The translations under genes were made by a program, and so were the position numbers. From an uncultured Bacilli bacterium (lineage in GTDB: Bacteria > Bacillota_I > Bacilli_A > RF39 > UBA660), in the NCBI GenBank assembly GCA_947581765.1, contig CANPVU010000001.1:5513-69512 (forward strand): a stretch of DNA of 64,000 nucleotides, in the 5' to 3' direction. Shown in pieces: positions 21,185-44,023 of this stretch. Each line of letters starts with the position of its first letter. Positions within the stretch are counted from its first letter, which is position 1. The notes beneath the pieces were generated by a model. It was given only the letters and a program-made list of their open reading frames with translations. It was not told the DNA's origin and searched no databases.

Positions 21185-22366
21185 TTATAATCTATTTTTA
21201 ATTTTAAATTTAATATTACTAAATTTTTTTCTTAATTTCATTTTAATTTCTTGATTTTTTGTACCTCTACAATACATTTTTAAAAATTTTTTCTTTAATT
21301 CACAATAAGCTTTTAATGCATCATCCTTATATGGATAATAGTATAGTTCATCATATCTAACTATGCTATTTCTGTCTGTATCATAATATGTTTCAATTAA
21401 TATGTTATAATTTTCTTCTGGATCATAACTTAAATCATAAAGTTCTTCAACATTTGTTTCTTTATTATATATATATTTAAATCGCTCACCAATAATTGCA
21501 GTTTTTCTATGTGGTTGCATATAGTATGCAGTGTCAACAATTGTAAATTTTCTTTCAATGATTTTATTATTCAATATTAATTCAACTAAATCCAAATGCG
21601 AAGTTAAAAAATCAACACTTTTTATATTATCAATTCTAGGAGTTATCAATGGAATACAAACTATTGGTTCATAAACGTGAAATCCATAACCTACCAGGCC
21701 CTTATGCATGTTCATATGTCCATGATCAGTTGTTAGGTAAATGTTATCATCACCTACCATTTTTCTTACAAAACCAACAATATTATCAAAATCCTCCATA
21801 TCATCCATATAAGAATTTCTACCTTTTAATATATGTGGAAGATGCATCCAAATAAATACAGGCTTAGATAAATCAATAGAATTTAGTTCAGTATAAATTT
21901 TATTATAGGTTTCTTCCATTTTTTTATCATTTCTTATTATTTTTTTCTCTGCATCTTTCTTTTTATGTGAGCCAGCTGGTTGTGCAATATCAATGTTATG
22001 TATAATTGTTTTATTTTCGTCACCAAATTCACGTACATATTTCCATGCCATGTCCATCCAAGTTTTGTCCCATATTAAATGGCATATATATCCCTTTTTT
22101 TGTAATATGTCAAAAATACTATTAAATTCATTTTTCAAAACAGGTTTATAAGTTTTTCTGCTTGAGAACTCATATGGATACTTTCCTGTTAAAAAAGAAC
22201 TCATTGACATAGATGTAGATGATGCTGTTGTGTAATGCCTTTTGAAAACTGTTCCATTATGTGCTAATGTATCGATATTTGGTGTATTAAATAATTTGTT
22301 ACCATATATTGGTAAAGACTCTTTTGACATACAATCTTTTGTTAGCAAAAAAATAATTTTTTTCAT
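21185..22366 (-). CDS. Sulfatase-fold (alkaline phosphatase superfamily) protein, probable phosphotransferase/hydrolase
   Basis: FNTPNIDTLAHNGTVFKRHYT...LTGKYP is the sulfatase N-terminal fold. The C/S-x-P-x-R formylglycine motif is absent (TSMSMSSF). No transmembrane segment. Confidence 0.55.
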   Translation of the reverse strand: MKKIIFLLTKDCMSKESLPIYGNKLFNTPNIDTLAHNGTVFKRHYTTASSTSMSMSSFLTGKYPYEFSSRKTYKPVLKNEFNSIFDILQKKGYICHLIWDKTWMDMAWKYVREFGDENKTIIHNIDIAQPAGSHKKKDAEKKIIRNDKKMEETYNKIYTELNSIDLSKPVFIWMHLPHILKGRNSYMDDMEDFDNIVGFVRKMVGDDNIYLTTDHGHMNMHKGLVGYGFHVYEPIVCIPLITPRIDNIKSVDFLTSHLDLVELILNNKIIERKFTIVDTAYYMQPHRKTAIIGERFKYIYNKETNVEELYDLSYDPEENYNILIETYYDTDRNSIVRYDELYYYPYKDDALKAYCELKKKFLKMYCRGTKNQEIKMKLRKKFSNIKFKIKNRL

Positions 22367-24785: not shown

Positions 24786-25889
24786 TTATTCATCAGGCAA
24801 TCCATTTTTTATAACACAATTCATATCACATGTACTACATTTATCTAATTCTTCCTTGGTAACTTTTCCGTCTTTAAAATCTCTAACAATTTTGTTTTCA
24901 TACATTGAATATTTATTTTGTTTAAAAAATCTTAAAAACTTATGTCTAAATACCCACCATGCTGGTTTCCATATATATTTGTGCATTGCTGGAGAAACAG
25001 ATCCAATCATCCAACATTGCCTATCACAATGTCGTACTTTATTTCTTACTCTTTCTGCTTTCTCTGAATTCCAAAGTTCTTCCCAAGTTTGTTCATTTAA
25101 ATTTCCCATTATTTCTTTGTCTTTAGTTCCATTACAAGGCATTACATCACCATATGGGTCTATGAAAAATGTATCAAATGCCATATCACATGGTAACAAA
25201 CGTTTTTGACCATAAATATAATTAATTAATCCATGATTAAAGTATGCTCTAAACCATTTTTTTGGAGAGTTAGACTTTAAAAGTTCATTAATTAATTTTT
25301 CAAATTCTTTTGCTACCATTGGTCTATCATGAATAATGTTTTTTGCCTCTACAAAATAGAAACTATTATGTAAGGATGCTGTTGCAAATTCCATATTTAA
25401 TTCATCAGATAATTTATATAGTTCAACTAAATCTTTTGCATTAGCATCTTGTACAGTCATTCCAAATCCTACATCTGGATGTTTCATTTCAACAAGTTTT
25501 TTTAGTGTTGAATATCCTTTATTAAATCCATCATCTAATCCTCTAATTTTATTATTTGTTTCTTCTAATCCTTCAATTGATATTCTAATTCCAACATTAG
25601 GAAATTCTTCACATAATTTAATAATTCTATCTGTAAAAAAACCATTAGTTGATATAACAATACGATCAGATTTTTTATATAATTCTCGTACTATATCTGG
25701 TAAATCTTCTCTTATGAATGGTTCTCCACCTGTTATGTTTGTAAAATACATTTTAGGTAATTTTTTTATTGTTTCAACACTAAGTTCTTCTTCAGGTTTT
25801 GAAGGACATTTATATCTATTACACATAGTACATCTAGCGTTACATCTATAAGTAACTATTACGGTTCCGTTTAACTTTTTCTCTGCCAT
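24786..25889 (-). CDS. Radical SAM / SPASM-domain protein, copy 2
   Basis: MAEKKLNGTVIVTYRCNARCTMCNRY..., near-identical to 8122-9309 over about 355 aa. Distinct 13-aa C-terminal tail. The ORF-track N-terminal extension MILM is probably not used. Confidence 0.8.
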   Translation of the reverse strand: MAEKKLNGTVIVTYRCNARCTMCNRYKCPSKPEEELSVETIKKLPKMYFTNITGGEPFIREDLPDIVRELYKKSDRIVISTNGFFTDRIIKLCEEFPNVGIRISIEGLEETNNKIRGLDDGFNKGYSTLKKLVEMKHPDVGFGMTVQDANAKDLVELYKLSDELNMEFATASLHNSFYFVEAKNIIHDRPMVAKEFEKLINELLKSNSPKKWFRAYFNHGLINYIYGQKRLLPCDMAFDTFFIDPYGDVMPCNGTKDKEIMGNLNEQTWEELWNSEKAERVRNKVRHCDRQCWMIGSVSPAMHKYIWKPAWWVFRHKFLRFFKQNKYSMYENKIVRDFKDGKVTKEELDKCSTCDMNCVIKNGLPDE

Positions 25890-25912
25890 GAGAATCACCT
25901 TTCTTTTTATTA
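24855..25912. repeat. Inverted repeat B, right copy
   Basis: Reverse complement matches 8110-9195. Confidence 0.75.
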
Positions 25913-29650: not shown

Positions 29651-30529
29651 ATGTTTTTACTACAAAAAAAGAACAAATTGAAATGTTATGGAGGAAATAT
29701 GACAAAAAATAACTTATCATCAGTGCAAGCTCATGTGTTAGATATATTACATCAATTGATTGAATTATTTGAAAAAGAAAATATTTCTTATTACATCCTT
29801 GGTGGTACTATGTTAGGTGCTATTCGTCACAAAGGATTTATTCCATGGGATGATGATGTTGACATAGGTATACCCAGGGAAGACTACGAACGATTTTTAA
29901 AAGAATGTAACTCTAAACTATCACAATATTTAAAAATCAGAACATATAATGATGAATCATATCATCATTATTACTATGCAAGAGTAGTAGATACAAGATA
30001 CCATATAAAAAGAAAAGGTAGTATTAAAGAAAGAGAAGAAGAATTATGGGTAGACATTTTTCCTTTAGATGGAATGCCTAATAGCAAAATAAAAACAATA
30101 ATTCATAAAATTAAATTGTTGTTTATAAGACTGTTATATCATATGTCATGCTTTGATAAAGTTAATATAAAACGTCCGGGAAGGCCTGTAATTGATAGGA
30201 TAATAATTAAAGTTCTTATGGTTACCCATATATGCTCCTCTCTTAATAGTACTAAGCTTCTGAATAAAATTGACAAACTTTTAAAAAAATACCCTATTTC
30301 TAGTTCAAAATATGTATTTAATTTTATGGGAAGTACCCATGCATTTCGTGAGATTTTTAATAAAGAGTGTTTCGCAGAAGGTACTAAATATGATTTTGAA
30401 GATATGAGATTAATTGGTCCCAAAAACTATGATTTTTATTTAAAAAAACTGTATGGAGATTATATGAAACTGCCTCCCGAAAACGAAAGAAATATTCATG
30501 CAGATGAATTCGTTGAAAAGGAAGAATAG
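29651..30529 (+). CDS. LicD-family phosphotransferase
   Basis: [31 protein letters not shown]. Confidence 0.8.
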
Positions 30530-30548
30530 TTTTTAGAAAGGAGTAATA

Positions 30549-31433
30549 ATGCGTTTACATGATGTTTCTAAAAGTGCTTCAAATAGTGAAGTTCCTATTC
30601 TTTCTGAAGAGCAATTAAAAAAACTACAAAAATTATTATTATCCATACTAGAAGATATTGATTATATATGTGATAAATATAACCTAAAATATATTCTTAT
30701 AGGTGGTTCTGCAATTGGGGCAATGAGACATAAAGGATTTATTCCATGGGATGATGATATAGACATTGCTATAACCAGAAAAGATTATAATGAATTAGTA
30801 AAAATTATACGTACAGAATATTCAAATAAATATTCGATTTTTGATGCTAATGATGATAAAAATTATGGTAGAATTATTCCAAAAATTAGATTAAAAGGAA
30901 CTACATATAGAACAATACTAGAACCTGATCTTGAAGATTGTGGAATAAGAATTGATATATTTTTAATTGAAAATGTATTCAATAATTTCTTGCTCCGAAA
31001 TATTCAGGGTATCGGTTGTTTATTTTTTGGTTTTGCTTTATCATGCAGAAGACTTTATAGTCATAAAAACGAATTTAAAAATATTGTATCGGGTGTTTCA
31101 TTTAAAATTAAAAAGTTTCTAGGATTTATTTTTAGTTTTGCATCGTTAGAAACATGGGCAAGATGGACTAATAAATGGTATTCAATATGTAAAAAAGATG
31201 ATTCAAAGTATGTATCTGTTCCAACAGATGGAGCTCACTTTTTTGGTGAACTTACTAACAGAACAAATCTTTGTGATAGAAAAGAAATAATATTTGAAGG
31301 AAAAAAAAGATATGTACCAAGTTCGGTTGATTCTTATCTTACAAGAATTTATGGTAATTATATGAAAATTCCACCAATTGAAAAGCAACTTAGAAGTAAA
31401 TATTTAGAATATAATCTTGGTAAATATGAATAA
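30549..31433 (+). CDS. LicD-family phosphotransferase
   Basis: [31 protein letters not shown]. Confidence 0.8.
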   Translation: MRLHDVSKSASNSEVPILSEEQLKKLQKLLLSILEDIDYICDKYNLKYILIGGSAIGAMRHKGFIPWDDDIDIAITRKDYNELVKIIRTEYSNKYSIFDANDDKNYGRIIPKIRLKGTTYRTILEPDLEDCGIRIDIFLIENVFNNFLLRNIQGIGCLFFGFALSCRRLYSHKNEFKNIVSGVSFKIKKFLGFIFSFASLETWARWTNKWYSICKKDDSKYVSVPTDGAHFFGELTNRTNLCDRKEIIFEGKKRYVPSSVDSYLTRIYGNYMKIPPIEKQLRSKYLEYNLGKYE

Positions 31434-31436
31434 TTT

Positions 31437-32528
31437 ATGAGGAGGGATATTATGATTAATTTTACAGTTGGTCCTGTTCAATCAGACGAAAAGGTTCTTG
31501 AAATTGGTTCAAAAAATGTACCATATTTTAGAACACCAGAGTTTTCAGAAATAATGCTTGAAAATGAAAGAATAATGAAAAAATTGACTTTTGCCTCCGA
31601 AAATGATCGAGTTGTATTTATTACTGGATCTGGCACAGCTTCTATGGAAGCAGCTATTATGAATGTTTTTACACAAAACGATAAAGTTTTAGTAATAAAT
31701 GGAGGAAGTTTTGGACAAAGATTTGCGGAAATGTGTGAAATTCACGATATTCCATATACAGAAATTAAGCTTCAAACTGGTAAAACAATTGATGAAGAAT
31801 TATTAAAAAAATATGATAACCAAGGATATACAGGATTCTTAGTAAATATCCATGAGACATCTACTGGGGTTTATTATAATCTAAATATTATAAGTGATTT
31901 TTGTAAAAGAAATAACATTTTCCTTGTTGTTGATGCAATAAGTTCATTTCTAGCTGATTCGTTTAATATGACTGAATTAGGTGTCGATGTCATGATTACT
32001 GGTTCACAAAAAGCATTAGCCTGTCCACCTGGAATTTCAATAATTATACTTTCTGAAAAAGCTATAAATCGTGTAATGAATAATAATGTTAAATCAATGT
32101 ATTTCGATTTAAAACTAGCATTAAAGAATGGTGAACGAGGACAAACTCCTTTTACACCGGCTGTAGGTATTTTATTACAAATTCATGAAAGACTTAAACA
32201 AATTGAAAAAAATGGTGGAATAGCCGTTGAACAAAAGAAAATTTCAAAATTGGCAAACGATTTTAGAAATCGTATTAAGGATTTGCCACTTGATATTTGT
32301 TCGGAATCACTTTCGAATGCAGTTACTCCTCTTTCAACAAGAAATTGTTCAGCATATAATATTTTTACAACACTTAAAGATGAGTACGGAATATGGATTT
32401 GCCCCAATGGTGGTGATTTGAAAGACAAAGTATTTCGTGTTGGGCATATAGGAAATTTAACAATTAATGATAATATTAAACTTTCAGATGCACTTCATGA
32501 TTTATTCAAAAAAGGAATATTAAAATAA
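31437..32528 (+). CDS. Class V (AGAT/SPT-family) pyridoxal-phosphate aminotransferase
   Basis: MINFTVGPV...ITGSGTASMEAAIMNV...SQKAL(A)CPPG follows the layout of serine-pyruvate / 2-aminoethylphosphonate-pyruvate type transaminases. Likely start at MINF (31452). Confidence 0.6.
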   Translation: MRRDIMINFTVGPVQSDEKVLEIGSKNVPYFRTPEFSEIMLENERIMKKLTFASENDRVVFITGSGTASMEAAIMNVFTQNDKVLVINGGSFGQRFAEMCEIHDIPYTEIKLQTGKTIDEELLKKYDNQGYTGFLVNIHETSTGVYYNLNIISDFCKRNNIFLVVDAISSFLADSFNMTELGVDVMITGSQKALACPPGISIIILSEKAINRVMNNNVKSMYFDLKLALKNGERGQTPFTPAVGILLQIHERLKQIEKNGGIAVEQKKISKLANDFRNRIKDLPLDICSESLSNAVTPLSTRNCSAYNIFTTLKDEYGIWICPNGGDLKDKVFRVGHIGNLTINDNIKLSDALHDLFKKGILK

Positions 32529-32548
32529 ATTTATAAGGAGATTAGAAA

Positions 32549-33484
32549 ATGAAAATAATAACACATAAAATGATTGATAATTTAAACCTTGATTCAAATG
32601 TTTGGTACGAATGGGCTGAACATGTAATAAAAAATAAGCATATGTATAATATGCCAGCCAAAACTAGTATCCATTTTGGAAGTTCATACTTTAATACTAT
32701 GCCAAGTATTCTTCCACCCGAAAATGTAATGGGAGTTAAAGTAGTTAATCGTTATCTTGGAAGAATTCCATCTTTAGATAGTCAAATTTTACTATATAAA
32801 TATGATAATGGAGAAAATATTGCACTCATGGATGCAAGTAAGATTACGGCAATGAGAACTGGGGCAGTAGCTGTACATACTATGGAACTTTTTGCTAATG
32901 ATGACTTTTATGAAGTTGGTATTATGGGATTTGGAAATATAGGTATAGCAACAATGGATATTTTAACATCACATTATTCGAATAGAAATATGAAAATAAA
33001 ACTTCTACGTTATAAAGATCATGCAGAAAAAGTCATAGAACGTTATAAAGAATATTCGAATATTTCATTTGAAATTGTAGATTCTGTTAAAGAAATTATT
33101 GTTGGAAGTGATGTAATAATATCATGTATCACATATACAGAAGATTTGCTTGGTGAAGATGAATGGTATAAAGAGGGATGCCTCGTTATACCAGTACATT
33201 TAAGAGGTTTCCAAAATTGTGATTTATTCTTTGATAAAGTATATGGAGATGACTATAATCAAATAAAAGGATTTGAATATTTTGATAAATTTAAATATTT
33301 TGCTGAAACTGCTGAAGTACTTCGTGGAGAAAAAAAAGGTCGTGAAAATAAATCTGAACGTATAATATGTTATAGTGTTGGAATGTCTTTACACGATATA
33401 TATGCAGCATCAAAAATTTATTCATATTTTGATAATATTGATGATACTTTATCACTTTCACCTGATACAAGATATTGGATATAA
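32549..33484 (+). CDS. Ornithine cyclodeaminase / mu-crystallin family NAD(P)-dependent dehydrogenase
   Basis: ITAMRTGAVAVHT and GIMGFGNIG (Rossmann fold) match the OCD/mu-crystallin family (SbnB/alanine dehydrogenase-like). Confidence 0.55.
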   Translation: MKIITHKMIDNLNLDSNVWYEWAEHVIKNKHMYNMPAKTSIHFGSSYFNTMPSILPPENVMGVKVVNRYLGRIPSLDSQILLYKYDNGENIALMDASKITAMRTGAVAVHTMELFANDDFYEVGIMGFGNIGIATMDILTSHYSNRNMKIKLLRYKDHAEKVIERYKEYSNISFEIVDSVKEIIVGSDVIISCITYTEDLLGEDEWYKEGCLVIPVHLRGFQNCDLFFDKVYGDDYNQIKGFEYFDKFKYFAETAEVLRGEKKGRENKSERIICYSVGMSLHDIYAASKIYSYFDNIDDTLSLSPDTRYWI

Positions 33485-34833
33485 AAATTGGAGTTTCCAT
33501 GAAAAAAGTAATTACATACGGAACATACGATTTATTACATTATGGTCATATTCGGTTACTTGAAAGAGCCAAAGCTTTAGGGGATTATTTAATCGTAGCT
33601 GTAACATCCGATGATTATGATAAGTCACGTGGAAAAATCAATGTCAAACAATCGTTAATTGAACGTGTAGAAGCGGTACGTAAAACCGGACTTGCAGATG
33701 AAATAATTGTAGAAGAATATGAAGGTCAAAAAATTGATGATATTAAAAAATTTGATATTGATATATTTACTGTAGGTTCAGATTGGAAAGGTGTATTTGA
33801 TTATCTTTCAGAATATTGTGAGGTTGTTTATTTGGATAGAACTGAAGGAATTTCTAGTTCTGAACTTAGAAAATCAGAATATTTAATCAATTTAGGAATT
33901 GTAGGAGATTCATCATTTTTAAATAGAATTGAAAAAGAAGCTAAATTTGTTAATGGTATTGTATTATCTGGAATTTGTACAAATAAATGTGAAAAAATGT
34001 CTAATGCAATTTTGAAACTTCCTTTGGTAACTGATAACTACAAAACTTTATTAGAACATTCAGATGCTGTTTATATTCATTCAATACCTGAGGAACATTA
34101 TGTCCAAATTAAACAAGCATTACAAATGGGAAAACATGTTCTTTGTGAATCACCTATTGCTATGTCAATGGTTGAGTGGGAGGAACTACAAAAAATTGCA
34201 AAACAAAATAATTGTATCTTGATGGATGCCCTAAGAACTGCATATTCTACTGCATTTTGTAGATTATTACTTTTAGCAAAAACTGGTAAGATTGGGAAAG
34301 TACTATCAGTAGATGCTACTTGTACTAGTTTACGAAAAATTGATAAAAATCAACTATCCAAATCTTGGAATAGTATTTCAGCATGGGGACCCACTGCATT
34401 GTTACCGATATTTCAATTATTTGGTACAGAATATAAAATAAAGCAGATTGTTTCAAATTTTATTGATTCTAATCAAACGTTTGATTCATTTACTAAAATT
34501 TCATTTGTTTATCAAAATTCAGTGGCATCTCTAAAGGTAGGCATGGGGCTAAAATCTGAAGGAGAATTAATTATATCTGGTACAAAAGGATATATATACG
34601 TCCCTTCCCCATGGTGGAAAACTGACTATTTTGAAATTAGATATGAAAATCCATCTGAAAACAAGAGATATTTTTATCAACTTGATGGTGAAGGTATTAG
34701 ACTAGAACTTGTAACTTTTGCAAAATCTATATCTAGTGGAAAAAATCTTTCGTCAATAGACCAAGAAGTGTCTAAAGCAATTTGTAAAATTTTAGAAGAT
34801 TTTAAAAACTGTGAAGATATGATTATTATTTAA
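33475..34833 (+). CDS. Fusion protein: TagD-family cytidylyltransferase (N-terminal) plus Gfo/Idh/MocA-like oxidoreductase (C-terminal)
   Basis: N-terminal VITYGTYDLLHYGHIRLLERAKALGDYLIVAVTSDDYD. The C-terminal ~320 aa start LGIVGDSSF (Rossmann) with the dehydrogenase alpha/beta layout. Confidence 0.65.
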   Translation: MDIKIGVSMKKVITYGTYDLLHYGHIRLLERAKALGDYLIVAVTSDDYDKSRGKINVKQSLIERVEAVRKTGLADEIIVEEYEGQKIDDIKKFDIDIFTVGSDWKGVFDYLSEYCEVVYLDRTEGISSSELRKSEYLINLGIVGDSSFLNRIEKEAKFVNGIVLSGICTNKCEKMSNAILKLPLVTDNYKTLLEHSDAVYIHSIPEEHYVQIKQALQMGKHVLCESPIAMSMVEWEELQKIAKQNNCILMDALRTAYSTAFCRLLLLAKTGKIGKVLSVDATCTSLRKIDKNQLSKSWNSISAWGPTALLPIFQLFGTEYKIKQIVSNFIDSNQTFDSFTKISFVYQNSVASLKVGMGLKSEGELIISGTKGYIYVPSPWWKTDYFEIRYENPSENKRYFYQLDGEGIRLELVTFAKSISSGKNLSSIDQEVSKAICKILEDFKNCEDMIII

Positions 34834-34851
34834 GGAGCTGCGATATAGAAT

Positions 34852-35856
34852 ATGAAAAATAATAAACAAATCGAAAAAATTGATTTTGTAATTATATGGG
34901 TTGATGGAGATGATCCAGAATGGCAAAAAGAATATAATAAGTACAGAAATGTTGATGGTGATAAAAGAAATTCACGTTTTAGAGATATGGAATTATTGCA
35001 ATATTGGTTTAGAGGTGTAGAGAAATTTACTCCATGGGTAAATAAGATATATTTTGTTACATGCGGTCAAAAACCTACATGGTTAAACACTAATCATCCA
35101 AAACTTGTATGTATAAATCATAAAGATTATATACCTAAACAATATCTTCCTACTTTCTCAAGTCATACAATTGAGGACAATTTACATAGAATTAAGGATT
35201 TAAGTGAACGTTTTGTTTATTTTAATGACGATACATTTATAATCAAATCAATGCAACCAGAAGATTTTTTTAAAAATGGTCTTCCATGTGAATCTGCAGT
35301 TATGAACTATTCAGCCCCAAGAAAAGAACCACTCAATCTTGTTCCTTTTGTTAATGTGGCAACAATCAATAGAAATTTTATAAAAAAAGATGTATTAAGG
35401 AAAAATTTAAGAAAGTTTTTTTCCTTTAAATATAATAAATATTTAATAAAGAATTTCCAGTTTATTATTGGTACATGGTTTCCTGGATTTAAATATTTTC
35501 ACTTACCAACGTCATTCTTAAAATCTACCTTTGAAGAAGTGTGGCAAAAAGAATATGACCTACTTGATAAAACCAGTAGTCACAAATTTCGTGTTCTTAC
35601 AGACGTTAATCAATGGCTATTTAAAGATTGGCAAATATGTAGTGGAAAATTTTATCCTAGAAACACAAACATCGGATATTATGCAGTAATCGATAGTGAT
35701 ACTGCTTTGTATAATGCTATTGCAGCTATGAAAAAAAGAAAATATAAACTATTTTGTGCTAATGATGAAGATTATGAAAATTTTGATTTGATGAAATCAG
35801 AACTAAAAAAAGCATTCAATGACTTGCTACCCGAAAAAAGTAAATTTGAAATATAG
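34852..35856 (+). CDS. Stealth-family capsular hexose-1-phosphoryltransferase
   Basis: Stealth conserved regions: IDFVIIWVDGDDPEW (CR1), ELLQYWFRGVEKFTPWVNKIYFVTCGQ (CR2), FVYFNDD (CR3). Confidence 0.7.
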   Translation: MKNNKQIEKIDFVIIWVDGDDPEWQKEYNKYRNVDGDKRNSRFRDMELLQYWFRGVEKFTPWVNKIYFVTCGQKPTWLNTNHPKLVCINHKDYIPKQYLPTFSSHTIEDNLHRIKDLSERFVYFNDDTFIIKSMQPEDFFKNGLPCESAVMNYSAPRKEPLNLVPFVNVATINRNFIKKDVLRKNLRKFFSFKYNKYLIKNFQFIIGTWFPGFKYFHLPTSFLKSTFEEVWQKEYDLLDKTSSHKFRVLTDVNQWLFKDWQICSGKFYPRNTNIGYYAVIDSDTALYNAIAAMKKRKYKLFCANDEDYENFDLMKSELKKAFNDLLPEKSKFEI

Positions 35857-35867
35857 TAAGGTGTTGT

Positions 35868-36959
35868 ATGTTGAAATCAAAAAAAAATATTTTATTTTAT
35901 ATCTCATGGATTCTTTATTCTAGTTCATACTTCTTATTTGTTGCTTCAAGTTTGAAATACATAACTAACATTCATGCATATTATAAATTCTTTCAATATA
36001 TTGTAATTTTTTTACTTGCAATACAATTAATAAAATTAAAATATAATTTAAAAAATTTTTTAATAATTACTCTTTTGATTATTTTAGCATTTTTGGTTAT
36101 GAACATGGAAATTATGATTATAATACTTTTTATACTGTGTGCGAGAAATATCAATATAAAAAAATTTTTAAATTTTGATATTAAATTGAAATTGTTTTGG
36201 ATTATATCTATTATTTTTTTATTTATTATAGGAATATTACCTAATGTAGATGGTATTTTTTATCAAACATATAAACAATCATTTGGATTTCAACACCCAA
36301 ATACGTTAGCAATGAATTCATATCTAGTAATGATAGAATTTCTTAGTATTAAATTTAAAAATTTAAAACGTTTAGATATTATTTTATTATTTATTTTATT
36401 CATATTTGTGAATTCTATTACACATTCACGAACAGCAGGATATTCATTTGTTTTTTTATTTATTTTTACATTGATATCAAAAATATATCCAAAAGTTTTT
36501 AATCTAAAAATTGTAAAAATTGCAATAATTTTTCTTGCCCCGATGTTAGCACTTTTGACTGTATATTTAACTTTACAATATAGCTCTGGAAGTGATTTTA
36601 TTTTATCTTTAAATAAATTACTTTCTGGTAGAATCTTTTTGCAATATATGAATATGAAAAAATATAAAATTACATTATTTGGTCAAGAATTTGATGAATC
36701 TTTTATGTATTTTTTAGATAGTGGATATCTAAGGGCATTACTAGAATTCGGATTATTATTTTTAGTTTTAATGTGTACATTATATATTAGATTGATGCAT
36801 AAATGTTTAAAAAATAAAGAATATGGATTAACAATTCTTATTATATTTTGTGTGCTCTTAGGTTTCACTGAAAGCTCATTTTTGAAAATTGTTGTAAATG
36901 TCTCGTTTATATTATTTTTAAACAATGAATTAAGAAAAAAAATAGATAGTTTTGATTGA
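35868..36959 (+). CDS. Wzy-like polymerase membrane protein
   Basis: 363 aa, about 10 transmembrane helices, sits between Stealth and GT2 genes. Confidence 0.55.
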   Translation: MLKSKKNILFYISWILYSSSYFLFVASSLKYITNIHAYYKFFQYIVIFLLAIQLIKLKYNLKNFLIITLLIILAFLVMNMEIMIIILFILCARNINIKKFLNFDIKLKLFWIISIIFLFIIGILPNVDGIFYQTYKQSFGFQHPNTLAMNSYLVMIEFLSIKFKNLKRLDIILLFILFIFVNSITHSRTAGYSFVFLFIFTLISKIYPKVFNLKIVKIAIIFLAPMLALLTVYLTLQYSSGSDFILSLNKLLSGRIFLQYMNMKKYKITLFGQEFDESFMYFLDSGYLRALLEFGLLFLVLMCTLYIRLMHKCLKNKEYGLTILIIFCVLLGFTESSFLKIVVNVSFILFLNNELRKKIDSFD

Positions 36960-36986
36960 TTTTTTTACTAAATATGAGGTGATAAA

Positions 36987-37970
36987 GTGAACAAATTAGT
37001 ATCAATTATAATCCCTGTTTATAATGTTGAAAAATATTTAAATAGATGTGTTGAAAGTGTTGTAAACCAAATCTATAAAAATATTGAAATTATTTTGGTA
37101 GATGATGGTTCTCCAGATTCTTGCGGGAAAATGTGTGATGAATGGGGTAAAAAAGATTTGAGGATTAAAGTTATTCATAAAAAAAATGGTGGTCTGTCTG
37201 ATGCTAGAAACTTTGGTTTAAAAATAGCAACAGGAGAATACGTGCTATTTGTAGATTCAGATGATTGGATTTCAACTTCAATGGTTAAAGATATGGTCGA
37301 AAATATGGAAAAAAATAACGTCGATATGGTAATTTGCCAATTTTATCTTGCGTATGCAAACGGTAAAAAAATATGCAAATATAACAATATAATTGAAAAT
37401 CAAATATTTGATGTTAGACAGACTATTAAATTATTGCTAGATGATAAAATAATTACAAATCATATTTGGAGAAAATTATATAAAAGAAGGTTATTATATT
37501 CTAATTGTTTTCCAATTGGAATGAATTATGAAGATATTTATGTAATGCCTAAATTAATTTTTTCTTGCAAAAAAATATATTATACTAATAATCCATATTA
37601 TTACTATTTTCAAAATCAAAATAGTATTACGAATACAGCATCTTATAAAAATTCACTTGATCATTTTAAAGCAAAAAAACATAGTTTTGAACAAATTATA
37701 GAAAAATTTCCTGAAATGAAGCAAGAAGTTAAAATTATACAAGAAAAAACAATATTACATATATGCAATAATTTGATTAAGAATGAAAACAATTACAAGT
37801 TAACTAAATTAAAATTGAACATATTTACTGAATTAAGGAAAGAAAGTAAAAATTTAAATGGCTTAGATTTAAAATTCGGGCAAATGATTTTATTTAAAAC
37901 TTTTAAGCATTCTTTTAAAATTTTTCTAATACTTTGTTGGTTAAAAAAAATATATACTAGGAAAGGATAA
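36987..37970 (+). CDS. Glycosyltransferase family 2
   Basis: VSIIIPVYNVEKYLNRCVESVVNQ...ILVDDGSPDS...VDSDD. GTG start. Confidence 0.75.
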   Translation: MNKLVSIIIPVYNVEKYLNRCVESVVNQIYKNIEIILVDDGSPDSCGKMCDEWGKKDLRIKVIHKKNGGLSDARNFGLKIATGEYVLFVDSDDWISTSMVKDMVENMEKNNVDMVICQFYLAYANGKKICKYNNIIENQIFDVRQTIKLLLDDKIITNHIWRKLYKRRLLYSNCFPIGMNYEDIYVMPKLIFSCKKIYYTNNPYYYYFQNQNSITNTASYKNSLDHFKAKKHSFEQIIEKFPEMKQEVKIIQEKTILHICNNLIKNENNYKLTKLKLNIFTELRKESKNLNGLDLKFGQMILFKTFKHSFKIFLILCWLKKIYTRKG

Positions 37971-37974
37971 TAAA

Positions 37975-39051
37975 ATGAATTTAAGCAGAAAAAAATTTTT
38001 TATCAAGAATTTTCTTAAAATGATAATAGGATATTTTTTAAATATTAAGAATTTTAAAAATTATGACGAAAATACTATATTCTTTATAGGCGTGCCAGAG
38101 TATGGAAATTTAGGTGATCAGGCAATTGCTAAAGCTGAAATAAACTTTTTAAAAAAAATTTTACCTGAAAGTGAAATTGTGGTTATTACAGAGAAAAAAA
38201 GTATGGAAAATTTACTATGCATAAAAAAAACAACTAATAAATTTCACAATATTTGTACATTCATTGGTGGTGGAAATATGGGAGATTTATATTTTTTTCA
38301 AGAAAATCTTAGATTAACTGCAATAAAATTATTAAAAAAAGGAAAAATTATTATATTTCCTCAATCTATAGATTATAATGGAACCTCAAAACGATATAAA
38401 AAAGCAAAAAAAATATATGAGTCACATGATAATTTATTTTTATTTACACGTGAAAAAAATAGTGAGAAAAAAAGGAAATTATTATTTCCAATGTGCAAAG
38501 GTGGATTAGTTCCTGACATAGTATTATCATTAGAACCTAAAATTGAAAAAATAACTAGAAATGGAATTTACTTTTGCCTTAGAAATGACATAGAAAAAAA
38601 TGATAAAAGCTTAAAAATTATAACTGAATTAGAAAATTTTTCAAAAAAATTAAATTTTGAAATTAAAAAAATAGATACTAGTTGTTCTAAATATTGTACA
38701 AAATATGAAAAACAAAATATGCAATTAACTAATTTTCTAAAAGAGTTTTCTAAAGCTAATATAATTATAACAGATCGACTACATGGAATGATATTCAGTG
38801 TTATAACAAATACACCCTGTGTGGCTTTCGATAACACTACTGGAAAAAATAAGAGTCTATATAACACATGGCTAAATAAAGAAATGGTTTGTTTTATCGA
38901 TAATATTAATGATATTGAAAAAGCTAAATATTATATAAAAAAACATCAACAAAATAATCAGTATAATAAGAATTATCTGAATGAAATTAATAAATATTAT
39001 AAAATTTTAGAAAAAAGTATATTAGATTTTTACCAAAAAAGTTTTAAATAA
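37975..39051 (+). CDS. Polysaccharide pyruvyl transferase (CsaB/WcaK family)
   Basis: GNLGDQAIAKAE... and C-terminal ITDRLHGMIFSVITNTPCVAFDN, typical of PS_pyruv_trans. Confidence 0.7.
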   Translation: MNLSRKKFFIKNFLKMIIGYFLNIKNFKNYDENTIFFIGVPEYGNLGDQAIAKAEINFLKKILPESEIVVITEKKSMENLLCIKKTTNKFHNICTFIGGGNMGDLYFFQENLRLTAIKLLKKGKIIIFPQSIDYNGTSKRYKKAKKIYESHDNLFLFTREKNSEKKRKLLFPMCKGGLVPDIVLSLEPKIEKITRNGIYFCLRNDIEKNDKSLKIITELENFSKKLNFEIKKIDTSCSKYCTKYEKQNMQLTNFLKEFSKANIIITDRLHGMIFSVITNTPCVAFDNTTGKNKSLYNTWLNKEMVCFIDNINDIEKAKYYIKKHQQNNQYNKNYLNEINKYYKILEKSILDFYQKSFK

Positions 39052-39114
39052 ATTTGATTAAAAATTCATATGCTTATTTACAATCATTTTAGATTGGAGA
39101 TGAAAATCTGAATA

Positions 39115-40623
39115 ATGCGCACAAAAAAGTCAATTACAAACATATTTTTCAACTTCAGCAATCAATTTATTACTTTAATTTTAAGCTTTTTTTCAAGAAA
39201 CATTTTTATCCATACATTAGGTGTTGAATATCTTGGAATAAATGGACTATTTAGTGATGTTTTAGGAATGTTATCACTTGCAGATTTAGGATTTAATACA
39301 GCAATGGTTTATAGCTTTTATAAGCCTATTGCTGAAAACAATCAAGAAAAGATTTCAGCTTTAATAACATTTTATCGAAAAATATATAATTTAATAGCAA
39401 TTGCTATTTCAATTATTGGTCTATGCTTAACACCTTTCATAAAATATATTGTTAATACAGATAAATCAATTTCAAACCTCGAAATTTATTATTTATTTGC
39501 ACTAACAGGTGTAGTAATATCATATTTATTTGTTTATAAAACTTCTATAATAACAGCTGATCAAAAAAATTATATTGTAACAAGAATTACAATTGTTACA
39601 AATATAATAAAAACAATAATTCAAATAATATCATTAATTATATTTAAAAATTTTATTATGTATTTATCTATAAATATATTATTTAATTTGTTAAACAATA
39701 TAATTGCTTCACATAAAGCTGTTACTATGTATCCATATATAAAAAACAAAAGAAATTTACCAAAAAGTGAGATTAAAAACATATTTATAAATTTAAAATC
39801 TGTATTTTTATATAAACTTTCTTCTTTAATGTTAAATGCTACAGACAATATTTTAATCTCTATAATTGTTGGTACTATAGCTGTTGGATATTATTCAAAT
39901 TATTTAATGATTAGTAATAAACTTTCACAAATTATTTCCTTATTTTTTACATCTGTAACTGCAAGTATAGGAAATATTATTGTAAAAGAAAAAGCATCTA
40001 AAAGATATGAAATATTTTCTGTTGAACAATCAATAAGTTTTATTATAAGTGGAATTGTTATACCATGTTTTACAATACTTATAAATGATTTAATTATACT
40101 ATGGTTAGGAAAAGATTATTCATTAGGATATGTTTTAGCAATTGTATTAGCTTTAAACTTATATCTTTCTTGTGTTTTACAACCATTATGGTCATATAGA
40201 GAAGCAACTGGTTTATACCAAAAAACAAAATGGATTATGTTTATATGTGCAATTATTAATATTGTTTTGTCAATTATATTTGGTTTACTATTTGGACTAT
40301 CCGGTATAATATTAGCATCATTCATTGCTAGAATATCAACATATGTGTGGTATGAACCTCATATTTTATTTAAAGAATATTTCGAAAGTCCTCCATATAC
40401 ATACTTTAAAGATTTAATAAAAAATTTTATTACTATAATAATCATTACTGTATTTTTATTTATTATATCTTCTAAATTTACTTCAATATCATTTACTACA
40501 CTTATAATTAAAGGTTTAATTTGTAGCACAGTATCTATTCTTATGATATTAGTAATTTATAAGAATAGTGATGGTATTAAATATTTAAAGAAGAAATTAA
40601 TAAGGAAGAAAAATAAACTTTAA
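39115..40623 (+). CDS. Wzx-type flippase (MOP superfamily)
   Basis: 502 aa, 12-14 transmembrane helices. Confidence 0.7.
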   Translation: MRTKKSITNIFFNFSNQFITLILSFFSRNIFIHTLGVEYLGINGLFSDVLGMLSLADLGFNTAMVYSFYKPIAENNQEKISALITFYRKIYNLIAIAISIIGLCLTPFIKYIVNTDKSISNLEIYYLFALTGVVISYLFVYKTSIITADQKNYIVTRITIVTNIIKTIIQIISLIIFKNFIMYLSINILFNLLNNIIASHKAVTMYPYIKNKRNLPKSEIKNIFINLKSVFLYKLSSLMLNATDNILISIIVGTIAVGYYSNYLMISNKLSQIISLFFTSVTASIGNIIVKEKASKRYEIFSVEQSISFIISGIVIPCFTILINDLIILWLGKDYSLGYVLAIVLALNLYLSCVLQPLWSYREATGLYQKTKWIMFICAIINIVLSIIFGLLFGLSGIILASFIARISTYVWYEPHILFKEYFESPPYTYFKDLIKNFITIIIITVFLFIISSKFTSISFTTLIIKGLICSTVSILMILVIYKNSDGIKYLKKKLIRKKNKL

Positions 40624-40673: not shown

Positions 40674-41597
40674 ATGATTTATATGAGAAAGAAAAAAGAA
40701 AATAAAGAATATTTAGGATATTATATAAATGAATTTATAAATATATCCAAGATAAGGAATAAGGAGTCTACTTATTCAAATTATTTATATACTATTAATT
40801 CTAGAATGATTGTATTATATAATACTAAGATAAAAAATATAGATATTAAGTTTATAAATGAGTATACTAATTATTTATTTGATAAAGGTTTATGTAGTAA
40901 AAGTATTAAAGATACTTTAATACTTTTAAATGAAATATTAAAATTAGCAGATATACATATTAATATACCTATGCCTAAAGTAATTAAAAAAGAAATTTCA
41001 GTATTTAATGAAGATGAACAAATAGAACTTGAAAAATACCTTTTAAATAGTCCTAATAGCGTTAATTTAGGTATATACCTATCACTTTATACTGGAATTA
41101 GAATTGGTGAACTATGCGCCTTAAAATGGGAAAATATAGACCTTATTAATAATAAGATAACTATTAAAAAAACAATGTTAAGAATTAAAGATACAAACCC
41201 TAATAATAGAAACAAAACTAAAGTAATAGTAGATTCACCAAAAAGTACATCATCTATAAGAGATATTCCACTACCACCTTTTATATCATCTATGTTATCT
41301 AAAATAACTAATATATTACCAGAATACTATTTACTTACAAATAGTATATCTTATATAGAACCTAGATTATTATATAAAAAATATAAACAAATACTTAGTG
41401 AATTAAACTTATCTAAATATAACTTTCATACAATGAGACATACATTTGCTACACGTTGTATAAACCAAAACTTCCCTATTAAAATAGTCTCAGAAATATT
41501 AGGACACTCTAGTGTTAAAATAACACTAGATAGATATGTACATCCTAATTATAATGAAAAAGTAAAAATGATGAATAATTTACAAAAATTATATTAA
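40674..41597 (+). CDS. Tyrosine site-specific recombinase (phage integrase / Xer family), stand-alone
   Basis: C-terminal HTMRHTFATRCINQNFPIKIVSEILGHSSVKITLDRYVH (R...HxxR...Y catalytic box) and an N-terminal SAM-like core-binding domain. Probable start at the second ATG (40683), preceded by GAGGA. Confidence 0.8.
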   Translation: MIYMRKKKENKEYLGYYINEFINISKIRNKESTYSNYLYTINSRMIVLYNTKIKNIDIKFINEYTNYLFDKGLCSKSIKDTLILLNEILKLADIHINIPMPKVIKKEISVFNEDEQIELEKYLLNSPNSVNLGIYLSLYTGIRIGELCALKWENIDLINNKITIKKTMLRIKDTNPNNRNKTKVIVDSPKSTSSIRDIPLPPFISSMLSKITNILPEYYLLTNSISYIEPRLLYKKYKQILSELNLSKYNFHTMRHTFATRCINQNFPIKIVSEILGHSSVKITLDRYVHPNYNEKVKMMNNLQKLY

Positions 41598-41654: not shown

Positions 41655-42338
41655 TTACTTAGATCCCTTACGTGATAATACTACTTTAAATGTCTTAAAA
41701 AATATTTTTACATCCATTTTAAATGATACATGATTAGAATAATACTTTTCTAACTCTAATCTCTTATCAAATGTAGTATCACTTCTTCCAGATACTTGCC
41801 AGTATCCAGTAAGACCAGGTTTAGTTTTAACTATATCATTATAGTAAACACCCATATCAAATTTTTCTCTTGGTAGGTAAGGTCTATTTCCTATTAAGGA
41901 CATATCCCCTTTTAATACATTAATTAATTGTGGTAATTCATCTAAAGATGCTATTCTAAGTATTTTCCCCATCTTAGTTATTCTAGGATCATTTTCCAAC
42001 TTTTTATTTATTTTATATTCTTGTGCCAACTCTTTGTTATTTTTAAGAATTTTTTCTAACTCATCATCAGCATTTACAATCATAGTTCTAAATTTATAAA
42101 ATTTAAATAATACCCCATTTTTCCCAATTCTTTTTTGTGTAAAAAATATCGAATGAAAATCCCCAGATAGCATATACGATATCTTTACAATAATAGAAAT
42201 AGGAATTAAAAGTAAACATCCAATAAATGAAAATATAATATCAAAAATTCTCTTTGATATTAAATATAATCTTTGTTTTGAAATACTAGTTGTTTTTACA
42301 TCCATACCAACAACATCAAACTGTGATATTTCATTCAT
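41655..42338 (-). CDS. Initiating undecaprenyl-phosphate sugar-phosphate transferase (Bac_transf family, small form)
   Basis: KRIFDIIFSFIGCLLL...FYKFRTM...DELPQLINVLKGDMSLIGNRP...PGLTGYWQVSGRS, the canonical bacterial sugar transferase C-terminal domain. Confidence 0.8.
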   Translation of the reverse strand: MNEISQFDVVGMDVKTTSISKQRLYLISKRIFDIIFSFIGCLLLIPISIIVKISYMLSGDFHSIFFTQKRIGKNGVLFKFYKFRTMIVNADDELEKILKNNKELAQEYKINKKLENDPRITKMGKILRIASLDELPQLINVLKGDMSLIGNRPYLPREKFDMGVYYNDIVKTKPGLTGYWQVSGRSDTTFDKRLELEKYYSNHVSFKMDVKIFFKTFKVVLSRKGSK

Positions 42339-42487: not shown

Positions 42488-44023
42488 TTACTCATTATAT
42501 ACAGATATTATTTTACTTCTTGCTTTGTCTATTTCAGCTTGAGATGGTTCCATAACATATGTCCATGTTTCAGGTATTGTATAAGTATATCCTCTTGAAT
42601 CTTTTCCATCTACACTTTGCTTAACAATTTTCCAAGCACTCATATTATTTAACTGATTTTTTACTAATTTTTGAATAACACTTTTTGGCATATCAGTTAG
42701 ATAAAATGAACTAAATGATTGTAATAATTCATCATATTTTAACAACAATGATTTGTTTTTAAACATTTTATTCATAATAGCTTCTAATACTTGTTGTTGA
42801 TTTAATACTCTATGTCTATCTCCGCCTTTATATGCATATCTTTCTCTTGCATATGCTAAGGCATGTTCACCGTCTAAGTGATTCCATCCTTTAGGAACTA
42901 CCCATCCTTTAATATGGTATGAATTAAATGTTATATCTGAGTATACATCTACTCCCCCTATTAAGTCTACTAATTTAACTACAGAAGTAAATCCTACTTT
43001 AACAGTATAATCAATTTTTATATCAAATATACTCTCTATAGTCTTTTTAGTCATATTCATTCCATACATACCACTATGTGTTAACTTATCTCTTAACCCT
43101 GTTGTACCAGGTAATTGTATATAATAATCTCTTGGTATACTAGTAAGTAATATAGTCCTTGTACTAGGATTTAATGTCATAATCATATTAACATCAGATA
43201 AAGAATTATTTACTATATTAGTAGTTCTACTATCACTACCAGATATTAATATATTTATTCCATTAGCATTACTTTTTTGTTTTACAGTATTAGAATTATT
43301 ACTAGTACTAGTTTTATTACTACTATTACTATTACTTACATCATTACTAGTATTATTACTATTACTGTTACTATTACTATTATTATTGCTTACATCATTA
43401 TTAATAATAATTTTATCTTCATATTCATAAGAATAAATAATTCTAATATTTGAAGCAGAATCACTAACTACTTCCTCTAATAAATCTAAGTAAACACTAT
43501 TAGATACAAATGAATCTATCTTATTATTTTTTAAATCCTTATATAATTGACTTACATCTTTATAACTTTTAAATTGAATATTTATTTTACTTTTAATCTC
43601 ACTTAAATAATCAGGACTAATAGTACTATTATCTATATATCCCATAGTTTTATTATTTAATGATTCAATCTTATCATAATTACTATCCTTTAATACTACT
43701 ACATTATATGCTGATTTCTCAACTTCGTAATTATTAAATCCATTATCTAAAAAATCATTAGTACTATCTACATACTTAATACCTATACCACATAATATAA
43801 TTAATATTACATATATAATACCACTAACTATTTTAGTCCATATCTTCTTAACAAATATACCTATAATACCAATTATATTTAATATAACAATACCTGCTAT
43901 TATTAAGTATAAATATTTATTAGGAATCATATCAAGATCTATTAACTCTTTTACAAGCCAACCAGAAAGAACTAATACTACAAATACTATAATTATTCTT
44001 AATATAGTCCATATCTTCTTCAT
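42488..44023 (-). CDS. LytR-CpsA-Psr (LCP) family glycopolymer-to-peptidoglycan ligase
   Basis: N-terminal transmembrane segments, Asn/Ser-rich linker, then INILISGSDSR...VNMIMTLNPSTRTILLTSIPRDYY LCP core. Confidence 0.75.
   Translation of the reverse strand: MKKIWTILRIIIVFVVLVLSGWLVKELIDLDMIPNKYLYLIIAGIVILNIIGIIGIFVKKIWTKIVSGIIYVILIILCGIGIKYVDSTNDFLDNGFNNYEVEKSAYNVVVLKDSNYDKIESLNNKTMGYIDNSTISPDYLSEIKSKINIQFKSYKDVSQLYKDLKNNKIDSFVSNSVYLDLLEEVVSDSASNIRIIYSYEYEDKIIINNDVSNNNSNSNSNSNNTSNDVSNSNSSNKTSTSNNSNTVKQKSNANGINILISGSDSRTTNIVNNSLSDVNMIMTLNPSTRTILLTSIPRDYYIQLPGTTGLRDKLTHSGMYGMNMTKKTIESIFDIKIDYTVKVGFTSVVKLVDLIGGVDVYSDITFNSYHIKGWVVPKGWNHLDGEHALAYARERYAYKGGDRHRVLNQQQVLEAIMNKMFKNKSLLLKYDELLQSFSSFYLTDMPKSVIQKLVKNQLNNMSAWKIVKQSVDGKDSRGYTYTIPETWTYVMEPSQAEIDKARSKIISVYNE

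Follow-up and report, generated by a model that had tools for sequence, protein, structure and literature searches.

What do two LicD-family phosphotransferases transfer when the genes beside them fit no described head-group pathway? The question is raised by a 64-kb stretch of contig CANPVU010000001.1 from an uncultured Bacilli bacterium (hereafter the window). Between a pair of LicD genes and a Stealth gene it encodes a class V aminotransferase dependent on pyridoxal phosphate (PLP), a dehydrogenase of the ornithine cyclodeaminase (OCD)/mu-crystallin family, and a fusion of a TagD-like cytidylyltransferase with a Gfo/Idh/MocA-type domain. An earlier note on this DNA had read these three proteins as a self-contained pathway that makes a small amino-alcohol phosphate and activates it with cytidine diphosphate (CDP) for the LicD enzymes. 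As an outline this survives, but motifs and gene context call for new roles for two of the proteins, the OCD-like enzyme and the Gfo half of the fusion. The reading we favour, with a confidence that stays a little below even, is that of a head-group module composed of the aminotransferase, a fusion of a TagD-like with a degenerate Gfo-like domain, and an accessory OCD-type dehydrogenase, which together would supply a CDP-activated amino-alcohol phosphate for transfer by LicD. That LicD moves a CDP-activated head group is, as a general scheme, already known; new are the enzymes and the products predicted for them.

The whole window is AT-rich (21-31% GC across 2-kb intervals) and consists mostly of polysaccharide cassettes, and the locus itself is of Gram-positive type with 24% GC. 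Ten genes follow one another on its + strand with gaps of 4-63 bp, and the short spacing from the first LicD gene to Wzx fits one operon:

29651..30529 (+), LicD-family phosphotransferase 1 (Pfam LicD, 167 bits)
30549..31433 (+), LicD-family phosphotransferase 2 (Pfam LicD, 120.7 bits)
31452..32528 (+), class V PLP aminotransferase, here called AT5w, 358 aa (Aminotran_5, 77.9 bits)
32549..33484 (+), OCD/mu-crystallin-family dehydrogenase, 311 aa (OCD_Mu_crystall, 96.1 bits)
33499..33879 (+), TagD/TarD-like cytidylyltransferase domain of the fusion (CTP_transf_like, 67.1 bits)
33886..34833 (+), Gfo/Idh/MocA-fold domain of the fusion (GFO_IDH_MocA, 56.1 bits, a partial match)
34852..35856 (+), Stealth-family hexose-1-phosphate transferase, probably the builder of a phosphodiester polymer (Pfam Stealth CR1, CR2 and CR3)
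35868..40623 (+), the remaining operon as identified with Pfam: a Wzy-like polytopic membrane protein (itself with no Pfam match), a GT2 glycosyltransferase, a polysaccharide pyruvyl transferase and a Wzx flippase

The three central open reading frames (ORFs) are real, intact and co-transcribed with the two LicD genes and the Stealth gene, and the Pfam matches agree with the families that had been named for them and for their flanking genes. The ORF ends and the start of the OCD gene also stand as first given, whereas two starts, at 31437 and 33475, have to be moved. An AGGAGGG Shine-Dalgarno sequence falls after ATG 31437 and serves ATG 31452, and TTG 33475 lies upstream of the GGAG that serves ATG 33499, from which a fusion of 444 aa with the TagD-like N-terminus MKKVITYGT is read. 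Public gene calls on identical metagenome contigs agree with both corrected positions, and 31452, 32549 and 33499 are therefore the likely starts. By the same public calls, on the identical contig L004, the first LicD protein has 276 aa and its gene starts near 29699. An identical OCD protein is found on seven gut-metagenome contigs with the gene order unchanged, the order of the downstream part of the operon is kept on contigs L004 and L005, and the locus is seen solely in gut metagenome contigs.

Which of these genes belong together can be read from other genomes, and the answer differs from the three-gene module first proposed: the conserved unit is the pair of AT5w and the fusion, with the OCD gene as an accessory in a minority of loci. 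Four contexts picked through the fusion protein alone, from Streptococcus suis (L090), Clostridium sp. MSJ-11 (L092), Prevotella sp. GTC17253 (L093) and the Ruminococcus albus 7 plasmid pRUMAL01 (L100), all carry LicD and then AT5w immediately upstream of the fusion, and none of the four has an OCD gene. Identity to the window copies is 59-67% for AT5w (59-72% over all comparisons) and 58-65% for the fusion. The S. suis locus also has the LicD-LicD and Stealth layout of the window, its Stealth protein being 44% identical, and the Prevotella copy adjoins genes for the lipopolysaccharide (LPS) core. In the fusion family, all 8,000 candidates scored E <= 1e-20, and the best 120 clusters are full-length fusions of 63-100% identity. 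The module ranges over Firmicutes and Bacteroidetes, including S. suis capsule loci, Eubacterium rectale, R. albus and Prevotella LPS-core regions. Enterocloster citroniae is a further cultured carrier of the pair, beside R. albus 7 and the S. suis strain. A cytidylyltransferase gene beside LicD in glycan loci, as is characteristic of LicD-dependent systems for CDP-alcohol head groups, is conserved across these genomes, and AT5w and the fusion adjoin LicD in every independent context examined, which bears out the proposal of a pathway dedicated to supplying LicD.

AT5w itself matches PDB entry 3f0h (E = 4e-143), an E. rectale structural-genomics structure with no assigned function, and it scores far under the curated NCBIfam cut-offs for PhnW/AepZ (163 bits against 360.8), BhcA and SerC. 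It is 25-29% identical to the genuine AEPT enzymes of two loci (L024 and L086) that hold the aminoethylphosphonate (AEP) pathway. A phosphonate route, which had been thought unlikely, is ruled out for the window, since tblastn finds neither phosphoenolpyruvate mutase (PepM) nor phosphonopyruvate decarboxylase (Ppd) in its 64 kb. A second route to phosphoethanolamine was also judged unlikely for AT5w, as L018 and L024 hold the AT5w module beside an ethanolamine-phosphate or AEP module. The substrate would be a small phosphorylated carbonyl, with dihydroxyacetone phosphate (DHAP) favoured: conversion of DHAP to serinol phosphate is the most economical choice because no further enzyme is needed, and the Campylobacter jejuni enzyme Cj1437 transaminates DHAP to serinol phosphate (PMC11800397). 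Serinol or aminopropanediol phosphate would be a plausible product, as the earlier note had speculated. The head group is expected to carry a free amine, because genes suited to N-acyl tailoring stand in sister loci, namely a GNAT N-acetyltransferase between the LicD genes of R. albus and a hexapeptide acetyltransferase after the fusion gene of L011.

The activation step would fall to the first half of the fusion, whose first 127 residues align full-length with Staphylococcus aureus TarD (2b7l, 1.1e-36) and Bacillus subtilis TagD (1coz, 7e-35). In TagD, HxGH and RTEGISTT are the nucleotide-binding motifs, and K44 and K46 contact phosphates. The corresponding HYGH, R44/K46 and RTEGISS of the fusion align with both structures and are invariant in its family. 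The TagD-like domain keeps the catalytic motifs. The equivalog cut-off of TIGR01518 is missed (112.6 bits against 165.4), and the loop following K46 is unlike that of TagD/TarD and one residue longer.

The second half of the fusion had been taken for an oxidoreductase, and here the fold and the residues disagree. In an AlphaFold2 model (pLDDT 84.5) the domain has the two-domain Gfo/Idh/MocA fold, Rossmann plus alpha/beta, with Foldseek target-normalised TM-scores of 0.82-0.84 to 3evn, 3e9m, 4had and KijD10. The motifs of the family (GxGxxG, the EKP lysine and a downstream catalytic Asp/His or Tyr) are missing: ESP stands in place of EKP, Leu is found where 3e9m has its catalytic Tyr, and G-D-S-S-F-L occupies the position of the glycine motif. 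This holds across the subfamily, since the EKP lysine is present in none of 107 scorable relatives, all of which read E-[SAPTL]-P, and family-wide the Tyr/His position is Leu or Met and the glycine motif G-x-S-x-x-L. A sister subfamily (the L062 type, 44% identical), which accompanies LicD in loci that have no class V aminotransferase, retains GIAGHG, CEKP and ELGSY; its Pfam match is full-length at 89 bits with an additional match to the C-terminal domain, whereas AT5-linked members reach 53-66 bits with no C-terminal match. The absence of catalytic and NAD-binding motifs throughout makes a redox step by this domain doubtful. In the AT5-linked modules it has probably lost canonical redox chemistry and become a pseudo-dehydrogenase, which may serve as a scaffold or binding domain.

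For the OCD-like protein, family membership is clear (96.1 bits against a Pfam gathering cut-off of 24) and the carboxylate-binding triad for a 2-oxo acid is kept, K38, K64 and R103 aligning with 6t3e, CRYM, SbnB and alanine dehydrogenase. Every specific-function NCBIfam equivalog is failed, with best scores of 75-80 bits against cut-offs of 322-409; the models covered are those of ornithine cyclodeaminase, archaeal alanine dehydrogenase, SbnB, Pyr2C/Pip2C reductase and BhcD. The usual hINAVG..D/E motif is replaced in this subfamily by an invariant VH-LRGFQNCD. The subfamily profile is nearest to Pyr2C reductase (6t3e, 2.6e-32) and SbnB (4m54, 5.5e-31), enzymes whose substrates are N-substituted imines of 2-oxo acids, and alanine dehydrogenase is ten orders weaker (1.9e-21).

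Gene neighbourhoods of this enzyme were compiled by ORF clustering for 80 metagenome loci, drawn from 486 confirmed relatives, together with the earlier loci. The OCD subfamily stands almost always in glycan loci, beside nucleotidyltransferase, PLP-enzyme and LicD genes, and the check that could have assigned the genes to housekeeping metabolism came out in favour of the cassette. A frequent companion of the OCD gene is a fusion of about 603 aa between an NTP_transferase domain and a CobD-like PLP domain, found at most two genes away in 34 of the 47 loci that extend 2.5 kb or more in each direction. The nucleotidyltransferase part of this NTP-PLP fusion is LicC/PntC-like, and LicD is usually adjacent. 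The PLP part has as its best PDB match 6oux (E = 5e-48), which is SMUL_1544, deposited as threonine-phosphate-decarboxylase-like and which we take to be the serine-phosphate decarboxylase of norcobamide synthesis; a Sulfurospirillum homologue is listed under the latter name, and CobD outscores HisC on the domain. Conversion of serine phosphate to ethanolamine phosphate, as carried out by C. jejuni Cj1436, is its likely role in these sister fusions.

The amine supply can change while the OCD gene stays. Two allelic loci differ in this way: L018 has the NTP-PLP fusion where L024 has PntC, a PepM fusion, Ppd and AEPT, and both keep the OCD gene and the upstream pair of AT5w and fusion. Elsewhere the OCD gene accompanies a trio that includes a LicC-kinase fusion and has no PLP enzyme (L075 and L084), or an ABC importer fused to a nucleotidyltransferase, with no aminotransferase (L039). 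Contexts of decarboxylase, PepM, kinase and import type make the OCD-like enzyme a constant partner of several independent routes of aminoethyl-phosph(on)ate supply. The clade of the window's own copy (at least 64% identity) occurs both with the AT5w module and with the NTP-PLP module (L006, 73%), and the window order, with OCD between AT5w and the fusion, recurs in L008, L010 and L011.

The partner of the NTP-PLP fusion can itself be exchanged. In all six loci picked via that fusion the next gene encodes a dehydrogenase, 1-24 bp downstream or overlapping by 4 bp, and this belongs to the OCD family in L094, L096 and L097 and to the Octopine_DH family in L095, L098 and L099. The L096 fusion, which has an OCD partner, is 87-89% identical to fusions partnered with Octopine_DH and is closer to these than to other OCD-partnered copies; overall, the replacement is seen among partner genes 82-91% identical. 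PDB sequence matches of the Octopine_DH-family protein are solely octopine dehydrogenase and N-(1-D-carboxyethyl)-L-norvaline dehydrogenase (CENDH). Common to both families is a reaction that uses NAD(P)H to join an amine and a 2-oxo acid into a secondary amine. The OCD-like protein had been placed among the enzymes that make the amino alcohol; an opine-type dehydrogenase, which forms secondary amines and would tailor the head group, is the better reading of it. Other amine-tailoring genes in the loci, such as methyltransferases (L006, L012 and L028) and a formyltransferase (Fusobacterium vincentii), fit this picture.

Several further arrangements were met along the way. A cassette of LicD, NTP-PLP fusion and then an OCD- or Octopine_DH-family dehydrogenase, of which no published description was found, is very common in gut and rumen bacteria (Butyrivibrio, Oscillospiraceae and Muribaculum), with examples in L013, L094-L099 and about 58 other loci (e.g., L094, 8001-10781); Butyrivibrio sp. 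MC2021 and VCB2006 are cultured carriers of the form with OCD. The trio that recurs beside OCD or Octopine_DH genes consists of a 304-aa nucleotidyltransferase, a 523-aa Amidohydro_3 protein and a LicC-choline-kinase fusion (L095, 10918-15205; L075 and L084). Beside OCD in L039 (11358-15822) stand a solute-binding protein, an ABC ATPase and the permease-nucleotidyltransferase fusion, an import-and-activate arrangement for a head-group precursor. The F. vincentii SB055 locus (L101, 4023-11399; on a 2.1-Mb record labelled as a plasmid and of chromosome size) encodes LicD, an unknown 427-aa protein, the formyltransferase, an NTP-PLP fusion, a DUF1015 protein and Wzx, with neither OCD nor Octopine_DH, which suggests N-formylation instead. 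In L011 (10955-11913) an Octopine_DH-family gene between OCD and the fusion is split into overlapping ORFs of 162 and 208 aa, through either faulty assembly or the decay of a redundant copy. More distantly, 32%-identical NTP-PLP fusions on plasmids of Bacillus cereus (L102) and Erwinia rhapontici (L103) lie in clusters resembling those for natural products, with ATP-grasp, acyl carrier protein, an aminoacyl-tRNA-ligase-like gene and CDP-alcohol phosphatidyltransferase, a different use of the fusion. A scan of genome contigs with the OCD protein returned only three distant Bacteroidales loci, and a search of plasmids gave no match. In one Bacteroides metagenome-assembled genome (L001, 6983-7900) a 42%-identical homologue lies between nadC and electron-transfer-flavoprotein genes, which is not a glycan locus and puts the boundary of the subfamily near 42% identity.

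With gene content, motifs, synteny and the exchange of OCD for Octopine_DH as the observed facts, the pathway of the window would run in four steps. AT5w would transaminate a small phosphorylated carbonyl, preferably DHAP to serinol phosphate. The OCD-like enzyme, as comparative genomics suggests, would use NAD(P)H to condense the primary amine with a 2-oxo acid into an N-(1-carboxyalkyl), opine-like amino-alcohol phosphate. The TagD-like domain, whose motifs are in place, would join this product to cytidine monophosphate (CMP), giving a CDP-activated donor, and one or both LicD enzymes would, by the function of their family, move the phospho-head group onto the glycan made with the Stealth, GT2, pyruvyl-transferase, Wzy and Wzx proteins. 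The substrates, the 2-oxo acid, the order of the second and third steps and the inactivity of the Gfo-like domain are what we infer.

A number of points weigh against this reading. The choice of a carbonyl for AT5w is guesswork. Conservation of the Gfo-like domain is very strong (identity of 63-74% between phyla), which implies that the domain still does something, and in the model its fold is complete; it might catalyse a reaction or bind NAD(P) in some unusual way. In the sister systems, rhizobial HisC-like proteins score similarly on the CobD-like domain, which may be either a decarboxylase or an aminotransferase of the HisC/Cj1437 kind. L011 and L086 hold both OCD and Octopine_DH genes, a poor fit with strict redundancy, though the L011 copy is the split one. 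Lastly, because the OCD gene of L018 and L024 sits with the other head-group module rather than with AT5w, gene order is the only tie between the OCD-like enzyme and the AT5w product in the window.

The main rival keeps the Gfo domain active. The TagD-like domain would make CDP-glycerol, the Gfo domain would oxidise it at C2 (or C1), and AT5w would transaminate the result to CDP-serinol (or CDP-aminopropanediol), with the OCD-like protein as an alanine-dehydrogenase-type partner regenerating the amino donor and NAD+ ("hydrogen borrowing"). This follows the usual logic of Gfo/Idh/MocA and aminotransferase pairs, is in keeping with weak NCBIfam matches to UDP-GlcNAc 3-dehydrogenase and inositol 2-dehydrogenase, with the intact modelled fold and with a cytidylyltransferase domain most like genuine glycerol-3-phosphate cytidylyltransferases, and has a precedent in BhcA/BhcD, a donor-recycling pair of class V aminotransferase and OCD-family enzyme, both of which are weakly matched here. 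Yet the AT5-linked members all lack the EKP lysine, the catalytic Tyr/His and the dinucleotide motif's second glycine, which the sister that lacks AT5 has kept, and CDP-glycerol oxidation by the Gfo domain was demoted on that ground. The role of OCD as donor regenerator, suggested by the BhcA/BhcD analogy and by redox balance with an active Gfo domain, was demoted as well, because the AT5w module does without OCD in all four independent loci, because OCD occurs with amines supplied by decarboxylase, kinase or import and needing no aminotransferase, and because its place is taken elsewhere by a gene of the opine-dehydrogenase family, whose product cannot serve as an alanine dehydrogenase; alanine dehydrogenase is also a weaker match than SbnB or Pyr2C reductase. 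Motif loss and the distribution of OCD thus disfavour this scheme, which we regard as unlikely.

The OCD-like enzyme might stand outside the AT5w pathway and tailor phosphoethanolamine from a LicC-kinase fusion encoded 12 kb upstream (16107-17702), the two LicDs then transferring two different head groups; the presence of two LicD genes, the linkage of OCD to such a fusion in L075 and L084, and its association with the non-AT5w module in L018 and L024 would all accord with this. The window OCD gene is, however, inserted between AT5w and the fusion with gaps of 20 bp and 14 bp, in an order repeated in L008, L010 and L011, and L008 has one LicD and no LicC-kinase fusion within its ±10 kb, which leaves this arrangement improbable. 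Rather less probable still is that the OCD-like enzyme makes an amino acid such as alanine or proline, through dehydrogenase or cyclodeaminase chemistry, for attachment to the polymer or as amino donor. Its family includes alanine dehydrogenases, ornithine and lysine cyclodeaminases and P2C reductases, and ATP-grasp genes are present in two loci (L053 and L087), but most loci, the window included, have no ligase gene, all specific-function NCBIfam models are far under cut-off, and the Octopine_DH-family replacement would be left without explanation. That the genes are housekeeping or inactive passengers, in a cassette installing only glycerol phosphate or phosphocholine, hardly deserves credence: the TagD-like domain and the nearby LicC-kinase fusion would suit it, but the synteny of AT5w, fusion and LicD is tight across Firmicutes and Bacteroidetes at about 60-70% identity, the ORFs are intact with all subfamily-invariant residues kept, and the sequence is identical on 7 metagenome contigs.

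The tailored, CDP-activated amino-alcohol phosphate that we favour resembles several known systems without coinciding with any of them. The Lic phosphocholine pathway of Streptococcus pneumoniae and Haemophilus (LicA, LicC and LicD) likewise activates a small phospho-alcohol with CDP in the cytoplasm, transfers it by LicD and keeps LicD beside the activation genes. It relies on uptake and a kinase, whereas the window head group would be made de novo by a PLP aminotransferase; its LicC is of the PF00483 type and the window cytidylyltransferase of the TagD type (PF01467), and the window adds a dehydrogenase. The CMP-2-aminoethylphosphonate pathway (PepM, Ppd, AEPT/PhnW and PntC, leading to LicD) shares the class V aminotransferase, which puts the amine on a phosphorus compound of two carbons, nucleotidyl activation and transfer by LicD, and the OCD subfamily of the window is attached to its clusters in L024 and L086; without PepM or Ppd, the window product must be a phosphate ester, not a phosphonate. 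Next to CDP-glycerol synthesis by TagD/TarD and CDP-ribitol synthesis by TarI/TarJ (Bcs1), the fusion of a cytidylyltransferase with a dehydrogenase fold recalls Bcs1/TarIJ, but its dehydrogenase-fold domain is of another family, lacks the catalytic residues and is always paired with an aminotransferase.

Unlike the class V AT5w, Cj1436 and Cj1437 are class I/II PLP enzymes, and their products are amide-bonded to glucuronate and then dephosphorylated, being neither CDP-activated nor transferred as phosphodiesters. As proposed for AT5w, they produce small amino-alcohol phosphates, in their case for the C. jejuni capsule: ethanolamine phosphate from serine phosphate and (S)-serinol phosphate from DHAP, respectively (PMC11800397). 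N-[(R)-1-carboxyethyl]ethanolamine phosphate occurs on the O-polysaccharides of Proteus mirabilis (PMC9630907). It belongs precisely to the class of product that the sister systems are predicted to make, while the amine of the window is probably not ethanolamine phosphate. Opine-type dehydrogenases (octopine, tauropine and CENDH enzymes, and SbnB within the OCD family) use NAD(P)H to link a primary amine and a 2-oxo acid through a secondary amine, or cleave such a link. Taurine, the substrate of tauropine dehydrogenase, is isosteric with aminoethylphosphonate and phosphoethanolamine, and we know of no OCD-family enzyme that acts on phospho-head groups. As the earlier note had supposed in not recognising the combination, full-text literature yielded no published description of these genes together, of CDP-serinol, of serinol phosphate in teichoic acids or capsules, or of OCD with PepM, and nothing relevant beyond C. 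jejuni and Proteus.

The absence of LicC and LicA that had been remarked on is true of the + strand operon and not of the divergently transcribed neighbour cassette, where a LicC-like nucleotidyltransferase is fused to a choline/ethanolamine kinase at 16107-17702 (-). It adjoins an IspD-type cytidylyltransferase (15388-16104 (-)) and a CDP-glycerol glycerophosphotransferase (17770-18939 (-)), has no LicD of its own, and could be a source of CDP-choline or CDP-ethanolamine for one of the + strand LicDs. Queried with a cytidylyltransferase domain, tblastn gives three more TagD-like matches, at 13507-13854 (+), 5378-5728 (-) and 5872-6162 (-), suggesting several CDP-alcohol-dependent polymers in one region. 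A radical SAM/SPASM protein (24786-25898 (-)) and a sulfatase/LtaS-like protein (21185-22366 (-)) inside a neighbouring glycosyltransferase cassette are unusual for a polysaccharide operon. The head-group genes stand out slightly in composition (27.6-28.8% GC at 30000-36000, against 21-25% for most flanking cassettes). A tyrosine recombinase gene (Phage_integrase, 40674-41597 (+)) closes the LicD-to-Wzx operon, facing convergent Bac_transf (41655-42338) and LytR-CpsA-Psr (42488-44023) genes, and may mark a cassette boundary or exchange point.

Phosphocholine, phosphoethanolamine and aminoethylphosphonate head groups control charge, immune recognition, phage adsorption and the binding of surface proteins. 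Taken together, the loci tentatively suggest, with slightly less assurance than we attach to the module of the window, that gut, rumen and oral bacteria and some S. suis possess, for decorating their surface glycans, two hitherto unrecognised de novo routes to phospho-amino-alcohols, one through AT5w and its fusion and one through the NTP-PLP fusion, and a dedicated OCD enzyme interchangeable with an Octopine_DH enzyme that forms an opine-like N-(1-carboxyalkyl) group. If true, opine-synthase chemistry would for the first time be assigned to head groups of the cell surface, and substituents like the N-(1-carboxyethyl)ethanolamine phosphate of Proteus would gain a genetic basis; the OCD/Octopine_DH replacement offers a directly testable hypothesis for the origin of N-carboxyethylated head groups. 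The Gfo-fold domain, without its motifs and yet highly conserved, is a candidate pseudoenzyme. The pair of AT5w and fusion is very common, yet its database names are generic, and assignment of its product would annotate thousands of glycan loci and would predict zwitterionic surface polymers in the gut microbiota, acidic and opine-like where the OCD gene is present.

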